DNA of 64,000 nt from Ignavibacteriales bacterium (GTDB taxonomy: Bacteria > Bacteroidota > Ignavibacteria > UBA10030 > UBA8401). The notes below the pieces were generated by a model that had not been told where the DNA came from, did no database searches, and saw nothing but the letters and a program-made list of their open reading frames with translations. The stretch covers positions 11,950 through 75,949 of the forward strand of contig JBBINR010000003.1 of assembly GCA_037443785.1 (NCBI GenBank). Direction: 5' to 3'. Position 1 is the stretch's first letter. Every line of letters begins with the position of its first letter. A program made the translations under genes and the position numbers. This document shows positions 1,315-19,693 of the stretch, piece by piece.

Positions 1315-1499
1315 TTCTCCTGTTGTGCGAACGGCGCTTCAAATAATAAAATGGTTACAACAACTCTCCCTGTTGTGTTGCACCGTCCGCACGGTTTCGA
1401 TTTCGTTTCCGAGTCGTGACCTGACGTTCTTTCGGAATAGCGAATCATACCTTCACCTTTACAATCGCTGCAGACTTCGATGAAAGAAATTTTATTCAC
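1305..1499 (-). CDS. Small zinc-ribbon protein (CxxC...CxxC)
   Basis: 64 aa with CSDCKGEG ... CGRCNTTG. Overlaps the portal stop by 4 nt, i.e. translationally coupled. Confidence 0.4.
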   Translation of the reverse strand: MNKISFIEVCSDCKGEGMIRYSERTSGHDSETKSKPCGRCNTTGRVVVTILLFEAPFAQQEKCN

Positions 1500-2650
1500 G
1501 GTAACTCACTTGCATTGATCGGCGTAAACAGTTTGTCACCTTGCTGAGGCGGAGTGAATCCAGCCTTTTTATAAACTTCATCTTCACGCATCGGAAGAAA
1601 TTTGTGCAGCACATCGATTGCCGCTGCATTCTTTTCTATATCCTGTTCTTCGGCAATGTTGAATTCAAACTTTACCGGAAGGTCATCGATTGCTGCGTCG
1701 GATTTATAATTCAACTTGTAATCGATCAGCAGCAATTGTTTCATCAGTGCTTCAACGCGGTTCATGTCCGTATAAAAAATATCGGCACTGACAAGTTTTA
1801 AGATTTCGATTGCCGCACGGCTGCCGCCGTTGTTCGGAAGTTCCGACGTATTCGCCTGCCCTAACATGGCAATAGAAATTTCTGCCTTGCGTTCATCGTT
1901 GAAATCTTTGAACTGCGTTCCGCCGCCTGCAGCTGCGATCTGATTCAATTTGAATTCGATCATGTCGTCAGTAACGAGGTAGTTATTCTTTACCGCATTC
2001 GCTGCCGCTGTTTCCGCTGCCGCTTGATTGTCGTCGGAGGTCCCTTTATTGATGATCTGCAAAATGCCTTTCAACTTTTTCAAATAGTTCGCATTCTCAA
2101 GCACCATGTCCCACCGCAAGATTTCAGGAATCATAACCGTGCGAAGCACACCGCCGCGCGGCAATGTTGTATAGGCATCAAAAATATATTCCGCTTGAAA
2201 TTCTGTTCTGCTGATTGCAGTGACAGTTCTGTCGGTTTTATTTTTAATGAGGAAGTGTGTGTTGCTGTAATCGAATTCATCCGGTTCAAAAAATTTTTCG
2301 ACAGAAAGGATATTACTGTCTTTTGCAGAAATAGTTTGCAGTTTTACAAGGAACGCACCATACAAGACCGTATTCAATTGTTTTTGAAGTATCGCATTGA
2401 TAGCCGGAGACAATCGTGTCTTCATCTCTTCCGCTTTTTTCTGAAACGTTGCGTCGCTCACGGTGAGATTCCACGAGAATGATGACAGCGCGCTATTGCG
2501 AGTTGTTGCATGACCGCTGATGCGAGGATTGGCAAAAAGCTGTTTGAGATATTTGAACATCACTTCCGTTGACCGCACCTTGTCGTTCGGTTCATCGGCG
2601 TTCTTGCATGCTGCGAAAAATTGGTCAAGCGTTGGGTAGAGTCGAGCCAT
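1496..2650 (-). CDS. Phage portal protein, Mu gp29-like (DUF935)
   Basis: About 385 aa immediately downstream of TerL. Start MARLYPTLDQFF at 2650 avoids overlap with the terminase. Overall similarity pattern matches the DUF935 portal family. Confidence 0.75.
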   Translation of the reverse strand: MARLYPTLDQFFAACKNADEPNDKVRSTEVMFKYLKQLFANPRISGHATTRNSALSSFSWNLTVSDATFQKKAEEMKTRLSPAINAILQKQLNTVLYGAFLVKLQTISAKDSNILSVEKFFEPDEFDYSNTHFLIKNKTDRTVTAISRTEFQAEYIFDAYTTLPRGGVLRTVMIPEILRWDMVLENANYLKKLKGILQIINKGTSDDNQAAAETAAANAVKNNYLVTDDMIEFKLNQIAAAGGGTQFKDFNDERKAEISIAMLGQANTSELPNNGGSRAAIEILKLVSADIFYTDMNRVEALMKQLLLIDYKLNYKSDAAIDDLPVKFEFNIAEEQDIEKNAAAIDVLHKFLPMREDEVYKKAGFTPPQQGDKLFTPINASELP

Positions 2651-2661
2651 GATAAAATTCC

Positions 2662-4350
2662 TTAATTGGTATAGACATCGTTGACCGGAACAGGCGGCGT
2701 TGATTTGCGTCCCGTAATTTTCCGGTCGTGAATAAATTCGTGCGCACAAATAATTGAATCCGGAGCGTCATCTTTTTTGTTTAACTTCACACCGGTGAAA
2801 GAAAAAAACTGAGCAAGGAACTTTTCGCCTTCCGGTGTCTTCGCAAATCCGGCAGGAAAAAAAACTTTGTCAGCTGCATACGCGCTTTGAAAATTTTTTG
2901 CAAGCTCGTCAACATTGTATCTTTTATATTCGATGTGCGGGAATGGCAACTTCTTTATTAAGCACCAGTTCCGAACATTGTTTGTCCAGTTGCTCTCTTG
3001 GTTCACGTTGCCGTCGAATCCGATATTCTTTACGTCGTGCGCTTTGCGCATGCGGAACACTTCATCCAATAATTTGTTGCTGTCCGCAAACGATCTGCAT
3101 AACGCTTCGGTGATGAAATAAGAATCCGTTGAGACAGAATATTTATAGACCGGCATCGCTGTCGTATCACCTTTCGATTTTTTTGAGAGGTTCGGGTCAA
3201 CCCACAACACACCGCGTGCATCGTTCGGTATCGATGTATATTCGTGATAGTGATCGCGCGTGAAGAAATCGCCTTCCGGAGGAATTGGATTTTGTTGGAA
3301 GTTCGCCTGCCAGTCACTTCCAGATTTCGGCTTCAACATTTCCTTCAGTTCGTTCTCGCTCATTGCAGAATATTTTTTGAACCATAACGAGAAGCCGTCG
3401 TATTGTTCTAACCGTGACACAGAATCTTTACTGAAGCTGACAACTTTAGAAAGTGTGGTGAATGTTTCGCGGTCAATCCATGCTTTGAACGATGTCACAG
3501 TCCATGAACGTGCAAGAATGCCTTGCTCTTGTTCAAGCGATAAACGATGCAGCGCGCCGGCTGTTGTAAAGTCGTTGCCAAGAATTAAGAATGTGCCGCC
3601 ATCGGAAAGAGATTGGAACGCTTCGGAAATTTTATCGATGCGTAGCTGCACTGCGTCGTTGCTGAATGACGATTCAAGTGTTTCGATGTCATCACCGAGA
3701 AGGAATTGCGGCCTGCCGAACAAACGAGTGTAACCGCGTAACGAACGACCTTCTGAAAATGATGCGATGTATTTCCATTCGTTCAATGCAGAAATTTTCG
3801 TCGAAGCCGATTTCTTTTTCTTTTTTCCATCGTTCATAAAAGAAAAATCTGCTGTTGCACGGAATCGGCATTGATCTGAGTTAGCTTCGGCGAATTCAAT
3901 TTTGAAATCTTCGCGGATGCGTTCATTGTCGGCGAGCAGCATAATGCAATCGCGCAAAATGTTTGCGGACTTCAAAATCGTTTCTGCATACGTTCCGGCA
4001 ATTTTTATTTTACCGCACAGCAGCATCCATAACAGCGTTGTTTTTCCTTTTGCCGTCTTACCGTGTTTTCGAGGTCCGAAAATTGTGTGCACGCCGGCAA
4101 CCTGCGCAACTTCACCGATGTAACCGTGCAACTCGCACGGCGGCGCGTAACTTTCATACATCGACGGCGGAAAATAATATTTATCGAACGCTTCATGCGA
4201 TGCGAACGCTTCTCGCAATCTTTTTTCCCGCGCTTGCGGTGTTCGTTCTGCATCGGTGAATGGCTGTACCTGCGACAACATCGCTGCAAGTTCTGCGTTC
4301 GCTTCAAACTGCGGGAAGGTATGCTGTATGTGTGAAAAAGTATTTTCCAT
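2662..4350 (-). CDS. Phage terminase large subunit
   Basis: Walker A GPRKHGKTAKGKTT, Walker B-like LLGDDIE, and C-terminal nuclease-like acidic motifs (WVDPN..GDTTAM, GFDGN); 562 aa. Confidence 0.9.
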   Translation of the reverse strand: MENTFSHIQHTFPQFEANAELAAMLSQVQPFTDAERTPQAREKRLREAFASHEAFDKYYFPPSMYESYAPPCELHGYIGEVAQVAGVHTIFGPRKHGKTAKGKTTLLWMLLCGKIKIAGTYAETILKSANILRDCIMLLADNERIREDFKIEFAEANSDQCRFRATADFSFMNDGKKKKKSASTKISALNEWKYIASFSEGRSLRGYTRLFGRPQFLLGDDIETLESSFSNDAVQLRIDKISEAFQSLSDGGTFLILGNDFTTAGALHRLSLEQEQGILARSWTVTSFKAWIDRETFTTLSKVVSFSKDSVSRLEQYDGFSLWFKKYSAMSENELKEMLKPKSGSDWQANFQQNPIPPEGDFFTRDHYHEYTSIPNDARGVLWVDPNLSKKSKGDTTAMPVYKYSVSTDSYFITEALCRSFADSNKLLDEVFRMRKAHDVKNIGFDGNVNQESNWTNNVRNWCLIKKLPFPHIEYKRYNVDELAKNFQSAYAADKVFFPAGFAKTPEGEKFLAQFFSFTGVKLNKKDDAPDSIICAHEFIHDRKITGRKSTPPVPVNDVYTN

Positions 4351-5972: not shown

Positions 5973-6150
5973 TTACGCAGCCTTCTCGAACCGCTCGACC
6001 TCTTTTTTCATGATTTTGGCAATTCTCTTTCTATGCTTTAGTCCGGGGCGCTGTCCGGACAAAATCATGTGTGCGTAAACTTCGCTCACTCCGAGCCGCC
6101 TTCCGATCTCCGCAGAATTAAATAGCTTTGCAACGTTGTTGACTTTCATT
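5973..6150 (-). CDS. Cro/Ner-like HTH DNA-binding protein
   Basis: About 59 aa. The segment AEIGRRLGVSEVYAHMILSGQRPGLKHRKRIAKIM is helix-turn-helix-like. The gene is divergent from the cI-like repressor. Confidence 0.55.
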
Positions 6151-6171
6151 TAATTGTCTCCTATGTTTGTT

Positions 6172-6251
6172 TAGTGTTAAAAACGTTTATTACTCTAAAC
6201 CAATATAGTGAAACTCGCTACTTTTGTCAAGCAGAAAATAGTGATTATCGA
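6172..6251. promoter_or_regulatory. Candidate operator region of the prophage switch, with ATAGTGA-N3-TCG direct repeats
   Basis: TAGTG motif at 6172, 6206 and 6239, about 33 bp apart. Copies two and three share ATAGTGAnnnTCG. The region sits between divergent cro-like and cI-like genes. Confidence 0.35.
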
Positions 6252-6260
6252 AACTTTTTT

Positions 6261-6680
6261 ATGAGCGATATAACCCCTGAAAAATTAGAAGCGTTCGGTC
6301 ATTCTCTTGTGGGGAAAGGTCACGGCTGGCAAAAAAAATTTGCTGATAAACTTAAAATTCGTTCAACGCAAGTATCAAAGATGTTATTGGGTCTTGAACC
6401 GATTGGTTCTAAGATGCAGCTGCGATTGTATGAACTTGGCTACGCTGATGAAGAAGAGTTGATTGCGCGCGACGCAATCGCACATTATTCCTCTCAAAAA
6501 ATAAAAACTGCATCAGAGTGGCTTGAGCGTGAAGCGATACGTTCAAGGAATACAGAAATCTCAGAACAGATTCGCTTACTTTGCGACATCGTAAAAATTT
6601 TAGAGGTGAAACCGAAAGAGGAACTTAAACGTGCAAAAGAATTATTGCGTGCCGGAGGATTTCAAAACTCAAACCACTAA
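6261..6680 (+). CDS. cI-like prophage repressor (HTH; no S24 peptidase domain)
   Basis: N-terminal HTH-like GHGWQKKFADKLKIRSTQVSKMLLG. Divergent from the cro-like gene. No Ser-Lys autocleavage motifs. Confidence 0.55.
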   Translation: MSDITPEKLEAFGHSLVGKGHGWQKKFADKLKIRSTQVSKMLLGLEPIGSKMQLRLYELGYADEEELIARDAIAHYSSQKIKTASEWLEREAIRSRNTEISEQIRLLCDIVKILEVKPKEELKRAKELLRAGGFQNSNH

Positions 6681-6686
6681 CATACT

Positions 6687-7073
6687 ATGGAAGAAAAAAT
6701 AATTTATGAACACCGCGATATTAAAGTTTCAAATGTTCGCGCTGTTTTCGGCGATAAAACTTTTTCTATGTCGAATATAACTTCGGTGATGTTTATAAAA
6801 ATTCCGAAGGTAATACGGTTGTATGGTGTGACAATAATATTTTTTGCCATTACAATATACTACGTCTCGAAAGACAGCAGCGCAACATGGCAAATACCGA
6901 CCGCAATCTTTTTAGCTCTCATCGGCGCATTACTGATTATTTTTGATCGACAAAAATACGCAGTGAGAATTGGAACTGCAGGCGGTGAAATTAACGCGAT
7001 CATTTTGAAAAGCGAATCAGAAATAAAATCCATCGTTGATTCACTCAATGAAGCAATCATAAAGCGTGGCTAA
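6687..7073 (+). CDS. Small two-TM membrane protein co-transcribed with the repressor (candidate superinfection-exclusion or abortive-infection protein)
   Basis: Starts 7 nt after the repressor stop. Two hydrophobic helices (VIRLYGVTIIFFAITIYYV and AIFLALIGALLIIF) are flanked by soluble ends. Confidence 0.5.
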   Translation: MEEKIIYEHRDIKVSNVRAVFGDKTFSMSNITSVMFIKIPKVIRLYGVTIIFFAITIYYVSKDSSATWQIPTAIFLALIGALLIIFDRQKYAVRIGTAGGEINAIILKSESEIKSIVDSLNEAIIKRG

Positions 7074-7207
7074 TTTACCGTCACATCAAAATTATAAACT
7101 TCGTAAGATAATCGTCTTCACCGTTCTAAGTCTCAGCTGCGTCATCGTGTGGCTCTCAGTGATCTTTGATTGGTGAAGAAATGTAAATTGTCAAAGAACA
7201 AAAATTT

Positions 7208-7615
7208 TTATTGCTGCGTTGAATCGTACACAACATTGAATTCGACATACGCCGCCGCAAAGTCTGAGTAGTAACCGTCGAACTTCACCGGCTCCGCATT
7301 CTGCTGAATCATTACATCGGAAATTTCATTTACGATCTTTTCAACCTTCTCGCATAACTCAATCGCATCGAGCGCGCTGTAGATTGGATTGTCTTCACCG
7401 CCTGCGCAGGCAAAGAATGTGAACTTCGATTTTCTGATCACACTTCCTTTTTGTGAAGTTGTCCCGGGTTCCGGGTCAATATAAATCCACACGCACGGTG
7501 TCATACTCGGCATCGTACCGAATTTTCCAAAGTCAACATCAACCTTTGCAGCGGTCATCAATGCATGCTGCTGCAGTGCCGTTCGTATCGCGCTTGCCGC
7601 TTCTCGCAGTATCAT
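7208..7615 (-). CDS. Hypothetical phage protein (possible head-tail joining protein)
   Basis: 135 aa. It is the last gene of a 3-gene minus-strand cassette whose members overlap by 4 nt. Confidence 0.45.
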   Translation of the reverse strand: MILREAASAIRTALQQHALMTAAKVDVDFGKFGTMPSMTPCVWIYIDPEPGTTSQKGSVIRKSKFTFFACAGGEDNPIYSALDAIELCEKVEKIVNEISDVMIQQNAEPVKFDGYYSDFAAAYVEFNVVYDSTQQ

Positions 7616-8112
7616 CGTTTTTTCTCCATCTTGATTTTCGCAATTTCCTCATTGTAAATTTTTATCACGTCATCATTGGTTGCACCCGGTGCATAACGCC
7701 GGATGATGCGCGCGATGATTTCAGCGTCTGCTCGGTTCATGTGCGCTTCAAGTTCAACGCTTTGCAGGAACTGCCGAATGCGCGACATCTTGTAAAGAAT
7801 GCTGACCCGCGAATTCAATTTCATTTTTGGATTCATCTCAAGCATTCCGGCACAGAGCGAGAGCTGCGATTTCATCAAGCCGAGATCGTCATTTTCATCA
7901 CGCATCATTTGTGCTGCGTTTAACTGTCCCTTCGATGTGTTTTTCAGGAGTTCGGATTTTTCAGCGTGCTTCTGCAGCGCGTAACGCGCTTGGTGAATCT
8001 TCACGTGAAATTTTTTAGAAAGGTCCTGCAGCGTCGCTTCAGGATGATTGCTTTTCCAAATGGATATTTTACTCTGCAGTTGATCGGAAATAAAAATTCT
8101 TTTCTTATTCAT
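7612..8112 (-). CDS. Hypothetical phage protein with HTH-like N-terminus
   Basis: Start at MNKKRIFISDQ (ATG at 8112), 5 nt after the upstream stop. The N-terminal region HPEATLQDLSKKFHVKIHQARYAL is HTH-like. Confidence 0.45.
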   Translation of the reverse strand: MNKKRIFISDQLQSKISIWKSNHPEATLQDLSKKFHVKIHQARYALQKHAEKSELLKNTSKGQLNAAQMMRDENDDLGLMKSQLSLCAGMLEMNPKMKLNSRVSILYKMSRIRQFLQSVELEAHMNRADAEIIARIIRRYAPGATNDDVIKIYNEEIAKIKMEKKR

Positions 8113-8563
8113 TCTCGTAGAGTCCTCCCATCGTTCCAACTTTCGCCGGAGTTGTTGATGTTGAACCGCCTGCATGTTGCGCAAGAGTTTTCATTGCATT
8201 ATCATAATTCTTGGTGATGCGAGAATTATATTCCGGCGAGGTTGCTTCTAATTTTACGCTTGCAAGATATTCAAGAATCCATGCATACGGCTGTTGCATC
8301 CAATCCGGCGCTGTCGTAAACGTTCCGCACTTATCAATAATCATCGTCTCAGTATTTGCAGCGAACTTTCCAAAGTTCGTTTCATCGGCAAGAACTTTTG
8401 CGGCAGACTTGCTGAGCAGTTCTTTGATGTCGTTGTAGGTATAGAGCATGACGTCCTTTCTAAAATGATAATGCAAACATACCGCACGCAGAAAAAAAAA
8501 GTCGGGTATATGCGGATATACTCTATAATAATTTTCCCGCGTGATTAAATTTGCATCGTTCAT
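8105..8563 (-). CDS. Hypothetical phage protein
   Basis: 152-aa ORF, first gene of the divergent cassette. Confidence 0.45.
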   Translation of the reverse strand: MNDANLITRENYYRVYPHIPDFFFLRAVCLHYHFRKDVMLYTYNDIKELLSKSAAKVLADETNFGKFAANTETMIIDKCGTFTTAPDWMQQPYAWILEYLASVKLEATSPEYNSRITKNYDNAMKTLAQHAGGSTSTTPAKVGTMGGLYENE

Positions 8564-9154: not shown

Positions 9155-10120
9155 ATGAATATAGCTCAAGTGTCATCGCTCAGCGGTCGCGGTCAAGGTT
9201 TACTGGAAGTCATGATTCAGGAAGCCCCGCTTCTGCAAACAGCGGAGTTCAAGCTGGAAGGAAGTTCGCATCTTGTTGTCACCGGTCGAAGCAAAACGAC
9301 CGACAGTGCTGCGCGCAAAGAAGGTGATCCCGGCGCAAAAAATACACCGACACCAAATACCACTGCGCGCAATCTCGCGCTCTACACACGCAACGTGTAT
9401 ATCGACGATGTCCGTCGTAACGACGTTGCTGCCGGTCTGCAGTCTGTTGAAGGATTGCGCTCGTTCGGCGATACACAGCTTCGCGTTGAAGCGAAAGGTC
9501 TCGCGTCTGAACTTGCGAATGAAATCATTAACGGTATCGATGCAAACGACGTCGGCGGTGTGTATCACATGCTCGGCATCAATCAGTTTGTAAAGGATGC
9601 TGCTGCTGCCGGACAAACAGCGCGCTTCGGTTTTACCGCTGCGCAAATTGCCGCGTTGAACAAAGAGGTAACACTGCAGCTAAATACCGCTGCAAACCAA
9701 GATGCATTTGTTGAATTGCTGGAACAAGAGATCGTGAATGTTCCGGGTGCGAATGCACTTATCATGAGCGGTCCGCTTTTCGCGCGTCTTGGAACAATTG
9801 CGCGACGGCTCGGCGCTGCAGGCGAAACACGAAACAGCTTCGGCGTTTCGGTGAAGACGTTTGCAAACGTTCCGATGATTCCGGTTGCAGGATTGGCAAT
9901 GGATGAAACATACGATGCCGTTGTCAACGCAGGCTCTATCTTCATCGTTCGCTTTGCTGAAGATACCGGCGTGCAGATCGACACGAACAGCGGTATCGCA
10001 TTCAAAGACTTCGACGAAGTCGAATCGATTCCTGCCGGCATGTCGCGCATTCAATCGTTCGTCAACCTGTCAATCCGTGAATTGAATTCTATTCGCCGAT
10101 TGTCACGCATTACGCTGTAA
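9155..10120 (+). CDS. Major capsid protein
   Basis: 321 aa, follows the scaffold, AGGAG RBS, and is followed by a strong hairpin. Confidence 0.65.
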   Translation: MNIAQVSSLSGRGQGLLEVMIQEAPLLQTAEFKLEGSSHLVVTGRSKTTDSAARKEGDPGAKNTPTPNTTARNLALYTRNVYIDDVRRNDVAAGLQSVEGLRSFGDTQLRVEAKGLASELANEIINGIDANDVGGVYHMLGINQFVKDAAAAGQTARFGFTAAQIAALNKEVTLQLNTAANQDAFVELLEQEIVNVPGANALIMSGPLFARLGTIARRLGAAGETRNSFGVSVKTFANVPMIPVAGLAMDETYDAVVNAGSIFIVRFAEDTGVQIDTNSGIAFKDFDEVESIPAGMSRIQSFVNLSIRELNSIRRLSRITL

Positions 10121-11639: not shown

Positions 11640-13973
11640 ATGGAAACGATAAAAATAAAAATAGACATCGACGGCACGCAAGTCAATGGAACACTTGCGC
11701 TGACAACGGATAATTTGAAACGGCTTGTGCAGCAATCCGATTCACTTTCGTCTTCCGGAAAATCTGCGTTCAAAAGCTACAGAGATAATATCGCCAACAT
11801 CGGCTTTGCAATTGACGGCGCTCGAAGAATATTTGATGTCATCAATGGAACACTCGGCGACAGCGTTCGCGCGTATCAAGAATCTGAAAATGCTTCAACG
11901 AAATTGACACAGGCGTTGAAGTCGCAAGGTATTTACAGCGAGATACTTATTGATGACTTGAAAAAGTTTGCTGCAGAGCGTCAACGTCTTACCGGAATTG
12001 ATGATGATGCGATCGTTTCCATTATGGGACAGCTCACAGCGATGGGTTTACAGGGGAAGGCGTTGAAAGATGCGGTTGTCGCCGTTCAAGATTTAAGCAC
12101 GTTGATGGACGGCGACATGCAAGGTGCTGTTCGCGTTATTGCCGATGCGTTCGACGGCAACGCCGGAATGTTGAAACGATACATAAAAGGTTTAGATGAA
12201 GCGGACATCAAAGAGCGTGGAACGATCTCAATCATTGAGCAGCTGACAAAAGCTGTCGGCGGACAAGCGGAGGCGATGGGAAATACCGGAGCCGGTGCAA
12301 TTAAAAAATTTGAAGCTGACTTAGGCGATGCAAAAGAATCTGTCGGCGAAATGATTTCACTCGCACTTATTCCGCTTGTGAATGTTGTTGATTCAATGGC
12401 ACGTGCATTTAACGGCCTTGAACCTCCGGTAAAGAATACTGCGATTGCGATTGGCTTTGTTGCCGCCGCTGCATACGCTCTTCAATCGGTCGGCATTATT
12501 GCATTCTTAGGCAAAGTTACAGTTGCCGTAAAAGGTATTTCGTTTGCGTGGACTGGATTAAGCGCTGCAATTGCGATTACCAATGCTCTTATCGGTGGTG
12601 TTGCCATTGCCGCATTATCCGTTTTCGGATTGCTTATTGAAAAGTTTTATCTCGACTGGAAATTGAAACAGAAAGAGATTGAACACATTGCAAGTTCATC
12701 TGCAGCGATGACTCAGGAAACAATCGATAAAATCAATAAGCTGCCGTCGATAAAACTCAAAATTCAAAGCCTTGATTTTGAGATTAAGGAATCGAAGGCA
12801 CGGCTTCAGGAACTTTACGACTATGCAGAAAAACTTCGTGCCGATAGTGCGAGCGATCAAGACATTGCAAAAGCCGATGCAGCGCGAGATGCAGAAGTTG
12901 AGCGATTGAAGCGATACGAAGATACAAAGACATCGATCATTACCGATTCTGAAAAGAAGCGCAAGGCAAATGCCGGAGTGATTGCTACTGAACTTGAAGA
13001 GCTTCGTGTTAAAACGATGCAGGATGGTTACGCAAAGCACAAAGCACAAGCTGAACTGGAATATGCTGAGGCTCTTAAAAAACTTAATGAGCGTTTGAAG
13101 AAAGAAGAAATCCTGCAGGAAGACTATACAAAGTTTCTTGCGCTCGAACAAAAGAAACGTGATGACATCGTCGCACCGCCGCTCAAGAAAGTAAAAATAA
13201 AATCGACTGCCGATGCCGAAGCTGAGGAGACCGAGAGAAACAAAAAAGCACTCGACAAACGCGTGAAGGATACTGGCGGCGCGTTAAAAAAAATTGATGA
13301 AGCGAAACTCGACGCACTTGATAACAGTGCCGCTATCGACAAAAAAAATGCTGAAGACGATGATGCAAATAAGGAAGCGCAGCAGAAGGCAACGGAACAA
13401 AACATCCTTGCTGCAACTCAGCAATATGATACGAGCAAATCGTTTGCTGAAAACATGAAAGATATATCGCGCGCGAACATTAAACGCATCATCGCCGAAG
13501 CTGTTGCAACGCAACTGGCGAAAGTCATTTCGATGATTCCCTTTCCGCTTAATATCGTTGCTGCACCTGCTGCCGGTATTGCCGTTCAAGCGATGATTGA
13601 AAAGATCGTACCGAAATTTGCTATTGGCGGATTGATCGGCGGACAGAGACACGCCCAAGGCGGAACACTCATTGAAGCTGAAGAGGGTGAATTCATTATG
13701 AACCGTGTCGTTACTCAAAAGCATTTCAATTTTCTCTCAGCTCTCAACGCAGGTAAAATTACGCTGCCAAAATTTTCCACCGGCGGCGTTGTTGGAAGTG
13801 TTGTTGCGACGGTATCGAATGCGGGAACTGATTTGAAAAGAGAATTTAAGACTCTCACAAAAGCTATCATTAACAATCCGCCGATTGTTAAAAATAGTTT
13901 TGATACCGACTGGACGCGGATGCGCAAGGGTGAACGAAAACTTCAACGCGTGAAAGCAGCATACGCATTATGA
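11640..13973 (+). CDS. Tail tape measure protein
   Basis: 777 aa with long coiled-coil and charged repeats, central hydrophobic segments, and C-terminal GG-rich region. Position after G/GT. Confidence 0.85.
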   Translation: METIKIKIDIDGTQVNGTLALTTDNLKRLVQQSDSLSSSGKSAFKSYRDNIANIGFAIDGARRIFDVINGTLGDSVRAYQESENASTKLTQALKSQGIYSEILIDDLKKFAAERQRLTGIDDDAIVSIMGQLTAMGLQGKALKDAVVAVQDLSTLMDGDMQGAVRVIADAFDGNAGMLKRYIKGLDEADIKERGTISIIEQLTKAVGGQAEAMGNTGAGAIKKFEADLGDAKESVGEMISLALIPLVNVVDSMARAFNGLEPPVKNTAIAIGFVAAAAYALQSVGIIAFLGKVTVAVKGISFAWTGLSAAIAITNALIGGVAIAALSVFGLLIEKFYLDWKLKQKEIEHIASSSAAMTQETIDKINKLPSIKLKIQSLDFEIKESKARLQELYDYAEKLRADSASDQDIAKADAARDAEVERLKRYEDTKTSIITDSEKKRKANAGVIATELEELRVKTMQDGYAKHKAQAELEYAEALKKLNERLKKEEILQEDYTKFLALEQKKRDDIVAPPLKKVKIKSTADAEAEETERNKKALDKRVKDTGGALKKIDEAKLDALDNSAAIDKKNAEDDDANKEAQQKATEQNILAATQQYDTSKSFAENMKDISRANIKRIIAEAVATQLAKVISMIPFPLNIVAAPAAGIAVQAMIEKIVPKFAIGGLIGGQRHAQGGTLIEAEEGEFIMNRVVTQKHFNFLSALNAGKITLPKFSTGGVVGSVVATVSNAGTDLKREFKTLTKAIINNPPIVKNSFDTDWTRMRKGERKLQRVKAAYAL

Positions 13974-15578: not shown

Positions 15579-16586
15579 ATGCCAACCAATATACAGACGG
15601 TTGCAGCATCCGATACATTGGACGCAGGACGACAAAAATTTAATGCGAACGACGAAGCATTGAAAGCCACTGCAGATGCTAATACCGCTCAGCAAGCGCA
15701 GCATGTTACAGATGGTCATCCGACGTTGTATTACACAAGGGCTCAGATCGATGCGGCACAAACGACGCAGGATAATGCGCTTGTGACTCACAAGGCAAGC
15801 GGCGATCATGATGCACGGTATTTATCATCATCGCTTCTTGCCAATTTGATGCGATTAACACTCGATCAAATTATCGACGGGATAAAAACATTCGTGCAAA
15901 ATATAAAGGTGAAAAAAGCGCAGCCGGCAATTGAACTGCAGCACTCCGATGGGACACCAATTGGTAACTTCTCCGGAGACGTTGTTGCTGGAAAGACTGT
16001 TGTGCGTACGCAAATTGTTGAGGCTGGTAATAATGTAAAGACGATATGCGAAGTGAATGAAGGTGGAACAATAGTAGATTTCCCAAACCATGATGTGGGT
16101 GCAAAAGGATTAAAGCTCGCTACTGAGGAATATGTTTCAAGCAAATTTATCAACGGACAAGTTAGTGGTTCGTTCTCCGTGCAAGAACAGTTACATGCTG
16201 CGAATTATTCAATCGCCGATCCAATTTATTCGAAGATTGAAGGAAATAGAAAATTCAATGGATTGCCGAATTGTAAATTGATTCGTGTCTGCATCCATAG
16301 AGTTATTACCGGCAGTATTTACGTCGGTGAATCATTCGAGTTGAATTTTGATTTTACATTGAACGTAAGCCAGAATCAATGTTGTTTTGTCTATGTCGCA
16401 CGGGGTATTGACTATGGTGGAGGAACTTATAAACCGCAATTAAAAATCGTCCGCCGCACGTACACAATCAATGCTGTTGTTGATGAAGAGATTGTATCGA
16501 CGTATGGCGGATTTGGCAGCGGAAGCACCGTGAGCAGCAGTGCAACCGATGATTGGTTTGTCACTTTACTATTTCAGATGGCTTAA
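15579..16586 (+). CDS. Tail fibre protein
   Basis: 335 aa. N-terminal motif GHPTLYYTRAQIDAAQ...HKASGDHDARYL is shared with the next gene. Gly/Ser-rich C-terminus. Confidence 0.55.
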   Translation: MPTNIQTVAASDTLDAGRQKFNANDEALKATADANTAQQAQHVTDGHPTLYYTRAQIDAAQTTQDNALVTHKASGDHDARYLSSSLLANLMRLTLDQIIDGIKTFVQNIKVKKAQPAIELQHSDGTPIGNFSGDVVAGKTVVRTQIVEAGNNVKTICEVNEGGTIVDFPNHDVGAKGLKLATEEYVSSKFINGQVSGSFSVQEQLHAANYSIADPIYSKIEGNRKFNGLPNCKLIRVCIHRVITGSIYVGESFELNFDFTLNVSQNQCCFVYVARGIDYGGGTYKPQLKIVRRTYTINAVVDEEIVSTYGGFGSGSTVSSSATDDWFVTLLFQMA

Positions 16587-16948
16587 TGATTGAAGAGATA
16601 AAACATACCGATTCCGATTTTCATCGTTTGCGTCAAGCAATCAATAAAAACGATAAAGCTCTGCAGAAGGATGTTGACGAGCTGCGAAACGCCGATGACA
16701 AACACGCGGCGACCGGTCATCCTGACTTGTATGATATGAATGGAGCGGCGGCTGCTGTGCAGATAAGTCTTAATTCACATAAATCTGGCGGAGATCACGA
16801 TACACATAATGATGTATTATACGCCGCAAAAAATAAATTCGATCAATTCACAAATTTTCTTTTGACCGGCGACTATGATGTGAGCACGGCGTTATTTGAT
16901 ATTGATGTTGCTCGGTTACCAATTGCAATTGATATGGGAGTTATCTGA
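16586..16948 (+). CDS. Tail fibre-associated protein sharing the N-terminal GHPxLY/SGDHD module
   Basis: TAATG overlap with the upstream gene. Motif GHPDLYDMNGAAAAV...HKSGGDHDTHNDVLYA. Confidence 0.45.
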   Translation: MIEEIKHTDSDFHRLRQAINKNDKALQKDVDELRNADDKHAATGHPDLYDMNGAAAAVQISLNSHKSGGDHDTHNDVLYAAKNKFDQFTNFLLTGDYDVSTALFDIDVARLPIAIDMGVI

Positions 16949-18528
16949 TGGGAAAATTACAAACATTGCGCGGTTCTGTTCTACCAGCGTTTGATGCGAA
17001 TCTTTATCCTGAGAGTGTGCAATTTACTGTTATCGTTGGCGGGGTTGTTACCGGTGTATACATCAGCAATGGAGTTTCGTGGGGTGATAATTTAATTTTA
17101 GTGAAAAGAATTAACGATAAAATTGTTCCAACAAACTCAAGGATATATGAACAAAATTATGGAGCGTTTGAGACAGGAATAAGAATAGTCTCATCTCAGC
17201 AGAATGTATTGCAAGGTTTGTTCGATGCCGTCGAGCCGGATGGAGTTGTTATTGATAACGACGCGGCTTTTACCACCGACCTTCTCGGTAAGACAATAAT
17301 GCAATTAACGTCAAACGATAATACTAATACTGATGGCACCGTCACGCGAGCTCCCAATTTTCCCAACGGGAATTGGGAACACATATCTGCAAGGATTATA
17401 GAGGTTATTAGCTCTACAAAACTTCGTCTTTCAAACGACATATTTAGACCGGGCAAATCATATTATTATGCAATTGATAATCATACCGGTAAAATAATTG
17501 AATCGCTAAAAGGGTTTATTACTACGGACACCGCAAGCAAGCTGATTGATAATAATGCAGTTTTTACAGGAGCCGTCGTTGGAAACTATGTTCTTGTTTA
17601 TAATGGTTTTTACTGGTACAGGTCAATTATTACCGCACTTGATAGTGCAACACAACTATCGCTCGACGTTGATATACCAACGATCGTGGGTCGGCAATAC
17701 ATTATCATCATATCGGACGATGCTTACAGATTCATACAATCAGCGGCTGACGATGTTTCAAATAATTCTTTTGGTTACAATCCTTTTGTCGTGGCTATTA
17801 AAAATGGCGTTTATCGAGAGTCCGTATTTGTTGGTACGCGAAGCTCGGAATACAATCACGTTGGGTCCGATCATATAATTTTCACGGGGGATAATCGCCA
17901 AAATTCATCCGTTGTAATAAAAGGCTCATTTGCAACGACTCCAACAACCATTTCTTCTACATTTGGTCTTCGTTGCAGTGGCTCTCTTCGGATTGTCTCT
18001 ATCGGTATTAGTTATAATTATACAATCGCCGCATTGTCATCCTCATATTCGGGGAGTATAGTCATTGAAAAATCAACAATCTCAAATGTAATTTCCGCCG
18101 CCGTTGGTGTCGGTTTAATTAAAATGGGTGATTGTATATTCAACAATGTGTCGTTAAGCATATTTTCCACTCAATCACAAGGTGGTGAGGGTTATTTTTA
18201 TGGTTCAATCGAAATACAGACTAACATGAATCTTGTCAGCCACTACTCACAAGGTGTTATAGCCGTTTTTGTAGACGGCGCGACAATCTCCGGAGCTGGC
18301 ACGCTAAGCGGAGGAGATCCTTTTGTACCGTATATAGGAGCAAAAGTGAGTGGAACATCGTTGCCAAAATTAACAGACGGTTCGAGTGTATGGGAACGAT
18401 ATTTTCAAACAACAAAGACTGCTGCAACAGCAACGGCAGGCGTTGGCGCTTTGCCGGCAACACCAGAAGGATTTATTATTGTTTACGTTAACGGAGCACA
18501 GAAAAAAATACCTTATTACAACGCATAG
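16948..18528 (+). CDS. Tailspike or receptor-binding protein with predicted right-handed beta-helix
   Basis: 526 aa with periodic short hydrophobic and Asn/Ser/Thr-rich repeats (VFVGTRSSEYNHVGSDHIIFTGDNRQNSSVVIKGS...ISNVISAAVGVGLIKMGDCIFNNVSLSIF). Confidence 0.5.
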   Translation: MGKLQTLRGSVLPAFDANLYPESVQFTVIVGGVVTGVYISNGVSWGDNLILVKRINDKIVPTNSRIYEQNYGAFETGIRIVSSQQNVLQGLFDAVEPDGVVIDNDAAFTTDLLGKTIMQLTSNDNTNTDGTVTRAPNFPNGNWEHISARIIEVISSTKLRLSNDIFRPGKSYYYAIDNHTGKIIESLKGFITTDTASKLIDNNAVFTGAVVGNYVLVYNGFYWYRSIITALDSATQLSLDVDIPTIVGRQYIIIISDDAYRFIQSAADDVSNNSFGYNPFVVAIKNGVYRESVFVGTRSSEYNHVGSDHIIFTGDNRQNSSVVIKGSFATTPTTISSTFGLRCSGSLRIVSIGISYNYTIAALSSSYSGSIVIEKSTISNVISAAVGVGLIKMGDCIFNNVSLSIFSTQSQGGEGYFYGSIEIQTNMNLVSHYSQGVIAVFVDGATISGAGTLSGGDPFVPYIGAKVSGTSLPKLTDGSSVWERYFQTTKTAATATAGVGALPATPEGFIIVYVNGAQKKIPYYNA

Positions 18529-18536
18529 GAGAATTT

Positions 18537-18815
18537 ATGAAACTAAATATTATACCAGTAGCAATAGATCTGCAAATGGCAGATATAATCGAAATACAAA
18601 TAAATGCGCTGCGGCTGAATGACAGCGCAGAGATTCACGTCGATTTTTTTAAGGATAAGGGATTGATTATTATTAACGGTGCTAGTGTACCAAATTATGA
18701 GCGCATTGCGCAGAAACAATTTGTCATCGCCGGTGCAGACTATCAAGCATGGAACGACGACCAATATGTGATTGATTATGTTATGAATAAATTTGGATTG
18801 ACGCTTGCTCAATGA
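18537..18815 (+). CDS. Hypothetical tail protein
   Basis: 92-aa ORF, coupled to the next gene. Confidence 0.4.
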   Translation: MKLNIIPVAIDLQMADIIEIQINALRLNDSAEIHVDFFKDKGLIIINGASVPNYERIAQKQFVIAGADYQAWNDDQYVIDYVMNKFGLTLAQ

Positions 18816-19693
18816 TTATTCAAGAGAATTATATTGAGATTGACTTTGATGCGGTGAAGAAATTTCGTTCACTCACTATAACATCCACGGCTGAAATTAC
18901 ACTCAGCAAGTTAATGCTAAAGAATCAGAACACCGGAACGTATGAGAGCGTTGATGCTGCTATTTATGTTGATGGCAATGAGGCGCACCTCCCTTTTTAT
19001 TTTCACACTGGCACGATTGAGATTATTCCCGATCTGCTCGGAAGCGGATTGATGATTGAGGGTGTCGGGTTAAATAATATTAGCAATGTTGTTGTTGATG
19101 ATCTACCGGTTCAGGACGTTGATTATTCCGGTGTTGTCGCCGGTGAAGCAAAGGAACGCGCTGACGGTGATGAAGCCTTGCTATCGGCGATTAATGCAGA
19201 AGCTACAGCGCGGTCAGTTGCGGATATAAATGAAGCGTCTGCTCGTGCTGCGGCGGATTCTACCCTTCAATCCGCTATCGATGCAAAGATTAATTACTGC
19301 CAACTTCCGATGGCATTTGAAAGCGGGTTCGGTGCGAGTGTAACGCGCTATGTTACTCCGGCATATTATAATGTTTCTTCGGTGAGCGGTGATATGCGTT
19401 ATCCTGTTGGTGACCGTGATATTACAATTCATGCTTTCACAATTTTAGGAAGACCAGCAACGTCGCCGGCACAGAATTATACGCACACATTTACTTTGCG
19501 AGTGAACGGTGTTGATACTGCAATGTCCGGGACAATTACAGTAACGCCGGCAGGTGGAATTGGTTATTATGAATTGACGGTAACTACCGGTGCACCCATT
19601 ACTGTTGCAGCTGGTTCATGGATAGATATTAAATGTGTCATCGCTGGTAATGGATTTATTAAGTTCAGCGGTAATATTTTGATAGGGATTTAA
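18812..19693 (+). CDS. Tail fibre or collar protein
   Basis: 293 aa with an Ala-rich coiled segment (EATARSVADINEASARAAADSTLQSAIDAKI). Last phage gene. Confidence 0.45.
   Translation: MIIQENYIEIDFDAVKKFRSLTITSTAEITLSKLMLKNQNTGTYESVDAAIYVDGNEAHLPFYFHTGTIEIIPDLLGSGLMIEGVGLNNISNVVVDDLPVQDVDYSGVVAGEAKERADGDEALLSAINAEATARSVADINEASARAAADSTLQSAIDAKINYCQLPMAFESGFGASVTRYVTPAYYNVSSVSGDMRYPVGDRDITIHAFTILGRPATSPAQNYTHTFTLRVNGVDTAMSGTITVTPAGGIGYYELTVTTGAPITVAAGSWIDIKCVIAGNGFIKFSGNILIGI

Follow-up and report, generated by a model that had tools for sequence, protein, structure and literature searches.

A DUF6232-family membrane protein in an Ignavibacteriales prophage: a predicted PH-like domain split by a membrane hairpin and a tentative link to superinfection exclusion

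Most prophage genes expressed alongside the repressor lack an assignment, and many have proved to be defence or exclusion genes. The prophage-expressed membrane exclusion genes include those of lambda cI-rexA-rexB, sieB of P22 and gp15 of HK97; RexB has four transmembrane (TM) helices, and HK97 gp15 is a moron gene of the tail region with a single-pass product. Here we analyse a gene at positions 6687..7073 of a 64,000-nt stretch of DNA from an Ignavibacteriales bacterium (contig JBBINR010000003.1; the whole stretch is called the window below), which a preliminary description had presented as a repressor-coupled candidate for superinfection exclusion (Sie) or abortive infection. Like lambda rexAB, P22 sieB and HK97 gp15, it is a prophage gene for a membrane protein lying after, or in the operon of, a repressor or presumed repressor. 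The analogy is one of position and logic; unlike in those cases, the product has a different topology and no similarity to them in sequence or fold. We assign it to the DUF6232 family, predict for it a pleckstrin homology (PH)-like domain with a membrane hairpin inserted, and weigh Sie against other possible roles.

Bacterial PH domains were defined by Xu et al. in 2010 and were seen in phage lysogeny modules, with bIL285 ORF2, ul36 ORF124 and Staphylococcus phage X2 ORF15 as examples (PMC2817789). Soluble bacterial PH domains crystallise as rings, pentameric and dodecameric, and their proteins have been linked to cell-envelope stress regulons, while PH families whose cytoplasmic domain is anchored by two N-terminal TM helices were proposed to be pores or transporters (PMC2817789). 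According to a later study, orf2 of bIL285 is sie285 and belongs to the four prophage sie genes that have been formally identified in strain IL1403; its PH-domain product is encoded in a constitutively expressed lysogeny module (PMC6127208). The same PH protein was suggested to change lysozyme and nisin sensitivity (PMC6127208). Another report gives TP901-1 orf2 and orf3 as identical to the SieF7/2AB pair, whose co-expression reduces skunavirus plaque size (PMC7693887). TP901-1 Orf2 is the membrane-associated partner of this two-part system and, like bIL285 Orf2, a bPH_3 protein encoded between repressor and integrase. In our annotation, bIL285 Orf2 consists of bPH_3 (6.9e-23) and SHOCT (1.3e-7) with no hydrophobic helix in its sequence, and Orf3 is an ImmA/IrrE-type Peptidase_M78. 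Across 48 phage records with relatives of the lactococcal Orf2, the gene order is repressor, (ImmA), PH protein, integrase; PH proteins of this type are also found in Staphylococcus, Streptococcus, Lactobacillus and Gordonia phages, with Moraxella and Gordonia variants positioned elsewhere.

The window gene and the parts of its product, as delimited on an AlphaFold2 (AF2) model, are as follows.

6687..7073, plus strand: DUF6232-family gene for a predicted membrane-anchored split PH-like protein (ATG start, 128 aa)
6687..6806, plus strand: predicted N-terminal half of the PH-like domain, residues 1-40, strands b1-b5 (AF2 strands 5-9, 12-15, 18-21, 24-27 and 31-39)
6813..6941, plus strand: predicted TM hairpin between b5 and b6 (AF2 TM1 43-63, loop 64-68, TM2 69-85)
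6954..7067, plus strand: predicted C-terminal half of the PH-like domain (b6 and b7 within residues 90-107, capping helix 110-127)

The open reading frame (ORF) has the extent and the 128-aa length first reported for it and starts with ATG. Its start had been put 7 nt past the upstream stop, and this too agrees with the sequence: the preceding ORF ends with TAA at 6678-6680, and the six nucleotides CATACT separate that stop from the ATG. An independent Logan assembly of SRR11582159 gives identical gene calls for the 128-aa product and for the 139-aa and 58-aa products encoded upstream of it. The view that the protein carries no recognisable motif had to be abandoned. Pfam PF19744 (DUF6232) matches it with 54.5 bits against a gathering score of 27.4 (hmmscan, E=1.9e-14), and the alignment covers all model positions, 1-117 of 117, over protein residues 12-124, in agreement with the precomputed annotation. 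The protein also matches phrog_23009, labelled as function unknown, at 2.7e-11. When 1.84 billion cluster representatives were searched exhaustively with phmmer, 977 relatives passed E<=1e-3, of which 100 also passed E<=1e-10. Because of the full-model match and these 977 relatives a chance ORF is excluded, and on this evidence 6687..7073 is a real gene. The protein is nonetheless a singleton at 90% identity, is at most 45% identical to each of the 150 best representatives, and retrieved only itself in a word-indexed homologue search, which with the family alignment yielded 29 proteins, none of them named. The host-type proteins of the window are likewise singletons at 90% identity, and the genome as a whole is highly novel.

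In an alignment of 76 DUF6232 members (A1), conservation sits in two soluble pieces, and the hydrophobic stretch between them is variable in sequence and length alike. The N-terminal motif is V.ITN.RAV.G.KTYAM.NITSV, with R18 and V34 invariant and T25 and S33 near-invariant; the C-terminal motif is Y.V.IGSASGE..AL.S.D..I..IV.A.N.AI..RG, in which V93, G100, E101, V117, N121, A123 and I124 are near-invariant. The window protein keeps both invariant residues as well as all of those that are at least 90% conserved in A1 (E3, T25, S33, V93, G100, E101, V117, N121, A123 and I124), and like the family it places a two-TM hairpin between the conserved halves. It differs in reading IGTAGGE where the family shows IGSASGE, and A119 of the consensus is S. 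Most members stand alone: 116 of 149 representatives are no longer than 150 aa. Among the 33 longer ones, 24 have an N-terminal CxxC...CxxC zinc-ribbon motif, some contain repeats resembling tetratricopeptide repeats (TPR), and P0002 is a tandem duplication. A repeat protein of 1027 aa (P0003, 3e-16) was left out of the counts; ten short stretches of it match residues 57-107 only, which suggests an artefact of composition or repeats rather than family membership. A PDB sequence profile search gave importin matches only, at E ~0.2, which we judged to be chance.

With A1 as the alignment, AF2 generated a model of the 128-aa protein with a mean predicted local distance difference test score (pLDDT) of 96.1 and a predicted TM-score (pTM) of 0.79. 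The model is a seven-stranded beta-sandwich with a C-terminal capping helix, as is characteristic of PH-like folds, and its C-terminal strands lie at 90-97 and 100-107. It thus predicts with high confidence that the N- and C-terminal stretches of ~40 residues form one PH-like beta-sandwich, interrupted by the membrane hairpin after strand 5. Soluble N- and C-terminal domains had been described beforehand. The soluble pieces are there, not as separate domains, since in the AF2 model they are the halves of a single PH-like domain. The two TM segments of the same description agree with the Kyte-Doolittle windows of the protein, which place hydrophobic segments at about residues 43-60 and 68-86, and with the AF2 helices at 43-63 and 69-85.

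The hairpin is a feature of the whole family, with a mean Kyte-Doolittle value of 2.48 in both TM windows over 50 members. Among the 50 members that could be parsed, the loop between the helices has a median of 7 residues and carries 0.3 lysine or arginine residues, compared with 1.8 and 1.6 in the two flanks, and 47 of the 50 obey the positive-inside rule. Because of this charge bias and the N-terminal zinc-ribbon fusions, we infer that the PH-like domain lies on the cytoplasmic face of the membrane and that only ~5-7 residues are periplasmic.

Two TM helices together with a cytoplasmic PH-like domain are also the layout of bPH_2/DUF304 (YdbS, YdbT), DUF1200, DUF2244 and YcxB (PMC2817789). 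In those families the hairpin precedes the domain, whereas in DUF6232 it is predicted to lie between strands 5 and 6, and the PH domain would therefore be assembled from both termini. In hmmscan, no bPH model (bPH_1-6) and no YcxB model matched the 128-aa protein at E<=1. In a profile-profile comparison with hhalign, DUF6232 and an alignment of Sie285-like bPH_3 proteins gave E=1.4e-3 with a probability of 17%; when the hairpin columns were cut out, these values became E=8.2e-5 and 61%, with 60 columns in structural register, compared with an E of 0.05 and a probability of 1% for a reversed control. This is suggestive of remote homology between DUF6232 and the bPH_3 phage proteins, not proof of it.

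The resemblance to the lactococcal Orf2 proteins (sie285; TP901-1 Orf2) extends to the position of the gene, which encodes a small PH-like protein on the repressor strand, downstream of the repressor position. The layout matches the Sie285-type module, except that the upstream gene of the window is only a putative repressor and the part of the prophage within the window has no integrase. Unlike the lactococcal Orf2, the 128-aa protein has an integral hairpin inside the domain, hmmscan finds neither bPH_3 nor SHOCT in it, and no ImmA/IrrE-like Peptidase_M78 is present among six neighbouring window proteins. Since bPH_3, SHOCT and the ImmA partner are all missing, the protein is not a member of the Sie285 family, which it resembles in predicted fold and genomic niche. 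To our knowledge, no bacterial PH family has so far been described as having a membrane hairpin inside the domain. What is new here is this predicted architecture, in a domain family without literature, together with the association of the family with mobile elements; the idea of a repressor-linked membrane moron is not new.

To survey genomic context across the family, we used a degenerate DNA pattern for the N-terminal motif, which at the protein level matches 66 of the 150 representatives (44%). In 185,579 species genomes it matched 59 loci, nearly all with a true DUF6232 member, from Verrucomicrobiota, Betaproteobacteria (Duganella, Janthinobacterium, Massilia), Chloroflexota, Planctomycetota, Acidobacteriota and others. 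Neighbours were called with a crude ORF caller and compared with Pfam for two genes per side, in 8-kb blocks not centred on the gene, so that the counts are approximate and a missing marker is weak evidence. The commonest neighbour family is Phage_integrase (9 upstream, 2-3 downstream), and two resolvases or serine recombinases were also found. With a locally built integrase hidden Markov model, a tyrosine integrase was detected within ~1 kb in 14 unique loci of at least eight size classes; together with the two serine recombinases, 16 of ~62 unique loci have such a gene next to DUF6232. Judged from typical integrase densities, an adjacency in about a quarter of loci would be far above background. 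Further contexts of the closest relatives come from contigs of at most 2.3 kb.

Several loci fit mobile elements of different kinds. DUF6232 directly follows the integrase of one phage (L006), directly precedes a large serine recombinase in L002, takes the third place in a tRNA / integrase / DUF6232 order in L022 and L024, and lies beside a tRNA or tmRNA gene in L046, L055 and L074. Three loci (L010-L012) repeat the window layout, with a cro-like HTH gene, a divergent gene for a 120-aa HTH_3 protein and then a zinc-ribbon-DUF6232 gene. On a Shewanella conjugative plasmid the gene is located between parA and hok/gef. It also occurs on three non-mobilizable Klebsiella plasmids of ~110 kb, and in the one such region examined (L075; Klebsiella pneumoniae plasmid NZ_CP065827.1, 19840-20220) it adjoins metallophosphoesterase/AAA (SbcCD-like) genes and nrdA. 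The gene content of L075 is reminiscent of phage-plasmids. Some neighbours match models of defence systems or defence candidates, namely SIR2, PDC-S65, S13, S12, S01 and a type I restriction-modification specificity subunit.

Two arrangements recur. In Oxalobacteraceae, a protein of ~600 aa is encoded after a 120-aa DUF6232 protein (L017, 603-2504, from Pseudoduganella danionis; L042; L067); the one of L017 has a SIR2_2 domain and matches SIR2/pAgo-associated PADLOC models, and arrangements of the L017 type may represent a defence-island context. The other reads (tRNA) / tyrosine integrase / zinc-ribbon-DUF6232 (171-179 aa) / small PUR-alpha-like protein and was seen in L016, L022, L024, L025, L034, L036, L037, L053, L058, L060, L066 and L070, in metagenome-assembled genomes labelled Verrucomicrobiota or Limisphaerales, or only 'bacterium' for L016. 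PUR-alpha-like PF04845 was found in five neighbours, and L036 has two tandem DUF6232 paralogues. These loci probably form a family of integrative elements.

In the window itself, the DUF6232 gene belongs to a compact block of which the remaining parts are as follows.

6261..6680, plus strand: 139-aa ORF, putative XRE-like helix-turn-helix (HTH) regulator, equivalent to cI in position (sub-threshold HTH signals and position)
6150..6260, no strand assigned: candidate switch region, 111-nt intergenic (promoter-like hexamers, palindrome, direct repeat)
5973..6149, minus strand: divergent cro-like HTH gene, 58 aa (phrog_1468, transcriptional repressor, 1.3e-4; HTH_3, 0.024)

The 139-aa and DUF6232 genes form a two-gene rightward unit with DUF6232 last, convergent with a gene at 7208-7615 on the minus strand. 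Both have a GC content at third codon positions (GC3) of ~35%, compared with ~50% in the flanking phage genes, and a total GC of 36.4% and 40.7%, respectively. Because the low GC3 is common to the two genes and sets them off from their flanks, the pair looks like a moron cassette. No Shine-Dalgarno-like sequence is present 5' of either gene; the genes of the window are without Shine-Dalgarno motifs. The cro-like gene heads a leftward operon of six small genes followed by terminase and portal. Between the divergent genes, 6150..6260 contains overlapping, face-to-face promoter-like hexamers (11/12 and 9/12 consensus matches), a palindrome of 27 nt at 6161-6208, and a direct repeat of 24 nt whose copies at 6202-6225 and 6235-6258 are 75% identical and lie 33 nt apart. 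These features are candidate operators and switch elements.

The upstream product had been called a repressor, which our searches leave unverified. The 139-aa protein is an orphan, with no homologue among 5.8 billion proteins and no significant Pfam, NCBIfam or PDB sequence match. HTH signals at residues 24-66 are all sub-threshold (HigA 0.066, Cdd1 0.068 and phrog_1381, labelled as plasmid antitoxin with HTH domain, 0.27). The single-sequence AF2 model is poor (pLDDT 49), and its helices at 6-17, 22-30, 36-43 and 50-58 are merely compatible with an XRE-type HTH. In BLASTP, neither the L010 HTH_3 protein nor the XRE-like protein of L084, a sister phage described below, showed similarity to the 139-aa protein.

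IMG/VR holds four contigs related to the large terminase subunit (TerL) of the window, of which L084 (IMG/VR 3300047643_000076; TerL 68% identical) is syntenic on both sides of the slot occupied by the cassette. One flank has homologues of window genes 8105, 7612 and 7208, and the other of the cro-like gene (49% identical), 5513, TerL, portal and 757. The L084 slot itself (6540-7890, 1.35 kb, equivalent to window 6150-7207) has different genes on the repressor strand, namely an XRE-like ORF (ISKAEFARRMNIFPQDVNKYFTG...WLATGKGEM) that is listed with 142 aa but has 119 aa when counted from its likely start, a peptide of 41 aa with a single TM segment, and two further ORFs (96 and 94 aa). Because L084 is syntenic yet carries other genes there, this comparison identifies the slot as a variable immunity-plus-cargo position, as expected of heteroimmune relatives with different morons. 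Small membrane peptides after the repressor recur in L084 and in the window, with unrelated sequences. Conservation of the gene pair across related prophages had been suggested as a check; it is the architecture that is conserved, not the pair. L085 and L086 (TerL 47%) are without the block of cro-like, early, HTH and DUF6232 genes, and the homologue of 7612-8184 abuts TerL (9953-10001), so that the regulatory block looks like an insertion into a conserved morphogenesis cluster. The argument from position, which placed the gene in the exclusion-gene slot after a repressor, holds in view of the divergent cro-like gene, the variable slot of the sister phage, the low GC3 and the PH-domain proteins encoded at the same place, between repressor and integrase, in lactococcal, staphylococcal and streptococcal phages.

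Our best guess for the function, and a tentative one, is a block of the Sie type, exerted at the inner membrane from its cytoplasmic side. It was chosen because nothing would be exposed outside, because niche and predicted fold are shared with the PH-type Sie proteins, and because the family travels with integrases, switches and plasmid maintenance regions. The cassette would be transcribed in the lysogen, like cI-rexAB, and the membrane-tethered PH domain would bind the inner leaflet or an inner-membrane component needed by incoming phage or plasmid DNA, possibly after its PH domains oligomerise into a ring, as soluble bacterial PH domains do. Genome entry would then be blocked and the cell not killed. 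A much wider claim, that DUF6232 is a so far unrecognised, phylum-spanning mobile family for exclusion or defence in which membrane-embedded rings of hairpin-split PH domains block or sense foreign DNA at the cytoplasmic face, seems doubtful to us. Were it true, lysogeny modules would have turned repeatedly to PH-domain proteins for superinfection exclusion, with bPH_3 serving in Firmicutes phages and DUF6232 elsewhere.

A number of observations weigh against an exclusion function. Almost nothing of the protein would be exposed to the periplasm, and receptor masking would therefore be impossible. The term repressor for the 139-aa product is putative and reflects its position; an HTH partner is not conserved in the family, with HTH_3 in only 2 of 96 upstream neighbours, and no other family member lies beside a homologue of the 139-aa or the 58-aa protein. 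In phage collections, tblastn of two family members against 50,697 INPHARED phage records gave no match, and in IMG/VR the DNA pattern and a protein pattern each found three contigs, one of them in common, for only five distinct contigs. No PADLOC-DB 2.0 model matches the 128-aa or the 139-aa protein at E<=1, and BFVD contains no fold relative of the DUF6232 model. A literature search for DUF6232 and PF19744 found no paper, and the family has no characterised homologue and no described function or fold. In addition, roughly two in three of the 59 genome loci are without an integrase, a tRNA or a marker of defence, many have hypothetical or ordinary chromosomal genes only, such as L008 among TonB-receptor and transport genes, and sequences of Chloroflexota, Verrucomicrobiota and Planctomycetota type include fusions to zinc ribbons or TPR.

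These last three observations favour instead an accessory membrane protein, active in envelope stress or membrane organisation, that hitch-hikes on mobile elements and whose PH domain binds inner-leaflet lipids or a host membrane protein. The envelope-stress regulons of soluble bacterial PH proteins (PMC2817789) and the suggested effect of the bIL285 PH protein on lysozyme and nisin sensitivity (PMC6127208) point in the same direction. However, the spread of the family is patchy (59 pattern matches in 185,579 genomes at ~44% sensitivity), as suits an accessory and not a core role, integrases or recombinases adjoin about a quarter of the loci, which would be far above the level for random genes, and the window gene sits inside a prophage switch cassette. 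We regard this explanation as possible and somewhat unlikely. Homologues with a housekeeping role in non-phage settings had been named in advance as the finding that would speak against exclusion; chromosomal and plasmid homologues exist, none of them with an assigned housekeeping role.

RexB and Cap15, a two-TM beta-barrel effector of cyclic-oligonucleotide-based antiphage signalling (CBASS), are models for a different kind of effector, in which a ring of PH domains would gather the hairpins into a gated pore that depolarises the membrane on an infection cue. A two-TM hairpin joined to a small beta-rich domain of ligand-binding type would suit such an abortive-infection protein, as would the rexAB-like position after a putative repressor, plasmid copies adjoining hok/gef and the PIN toxin gene next to L002. 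PH rings are known from crystals, and pores or transporters were proposed for TM-anchored PH proteins (PMC2817789). On the other hand, no conserved sensor partner lies beside the DUF6232 gene, constitutive co-expression with the repressor demands a harmless resting state, and the protein has no similarity to RexB, Cap15 or any PADLOC effector, so that we consider a pore unlikely.

The 6-nt spacing to the HTH-like gene and the unusual composition common to both genes could also reflect an accessory part in the lysis-lysogeny switch, with the DUF6232 product as a membrane sensor that would act on the HTH protein by sequestration or by relaying envelope signals, and in Gram-positive phages the PH gene adjoins an ImmA/IrrE protease that controls repressor cleavage. 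Such a role is quite unlikely in view of the family at large, in which most members have no HTH neighbour and many are located beside integrases, on plasmids or alone; in the window there is no adjacent ImmA-like gene, and the sister phage L084 keeps the switch without a DUF6232 protein. A toxin-antitoxin or addiction module, in which the HTH protein would be the antitoxin and the DUF6232 product the toxin, would account for the tight spacing, the small membrane product and the weak matches of the 139-aa protein to HigA-type antitoxins and an antitoxin PHROG, but is very improbable because the pairing is not conserved (HTH_3 at 2/96, no 139-aa homologue, most members solitary), and the antitoxin matches are far below threshold.

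Compared with these alternatives, superinfection exclusion is a reasonable hypothesis that now has a structural and comparative footing. DUF6232 gains a predicted fold, in which a membrane hairpin splits a PH-like domain; a predicted topology, with a cytoplasmic domain and a periplasmic loop of ~7 residues; and a genomic habit, beside integrases, at tRNA-flanked element ends, at cro/cI-type switches and on plasmids. A link is also drawn to the PH proteins encoded in the lysogeny modules of lactococcal and staphylococcal phages; Sie activity has been reported for one type of these proteins, as cited above. If exclusion is true, membrane-associated PH domains would be suggested as a general exclusion device; otherwise the gene is a prophage moron of unknown role.

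A further small ORF overlaps the DUF6232 stop by 8 nt.

7066..7176, plus strand: possible single-TM 36-aa peptide, uncertain (GTG start; MANLPSHQNYKLRKIIVFTVLSLSCVIVWLSVIFDW)

Its maximum hydrophobicity is 2.53. As a conserved partner of the DUF6232 gene it was rejected, since a comparable ORF follows just 1 of 64 other family loci examined, and it is uncalled in the Logan assembly.

The prophage, a novel one, covers window positions 1 to ~19,700, and host-type genes (amylase, GH2, endonuclease and others) run from 19,976 onward. The prophage annotation identifies the following structural and packaging genes.

1496-2749, minus strand: portal
2662-4350, minus strand: large terminase
9155-10120, plus strand: major head protein
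11640-13973, plus strand: tape measure

No relative of the window TerL was found in INPHARED. The portion of the prophage that lies inside the window contains neither a recognisable integrase gene nor a recognisable replication gene, and Pfam matches none of the three large ORFs at 15579-19693. Scans of the 64-kb window for tRNA genes and Rfam families found nothing. The layout of the prophage is unusual in that the cro-like operon runs into terminase and portal on the minus strand, and the head and tail genes run the opposite way.

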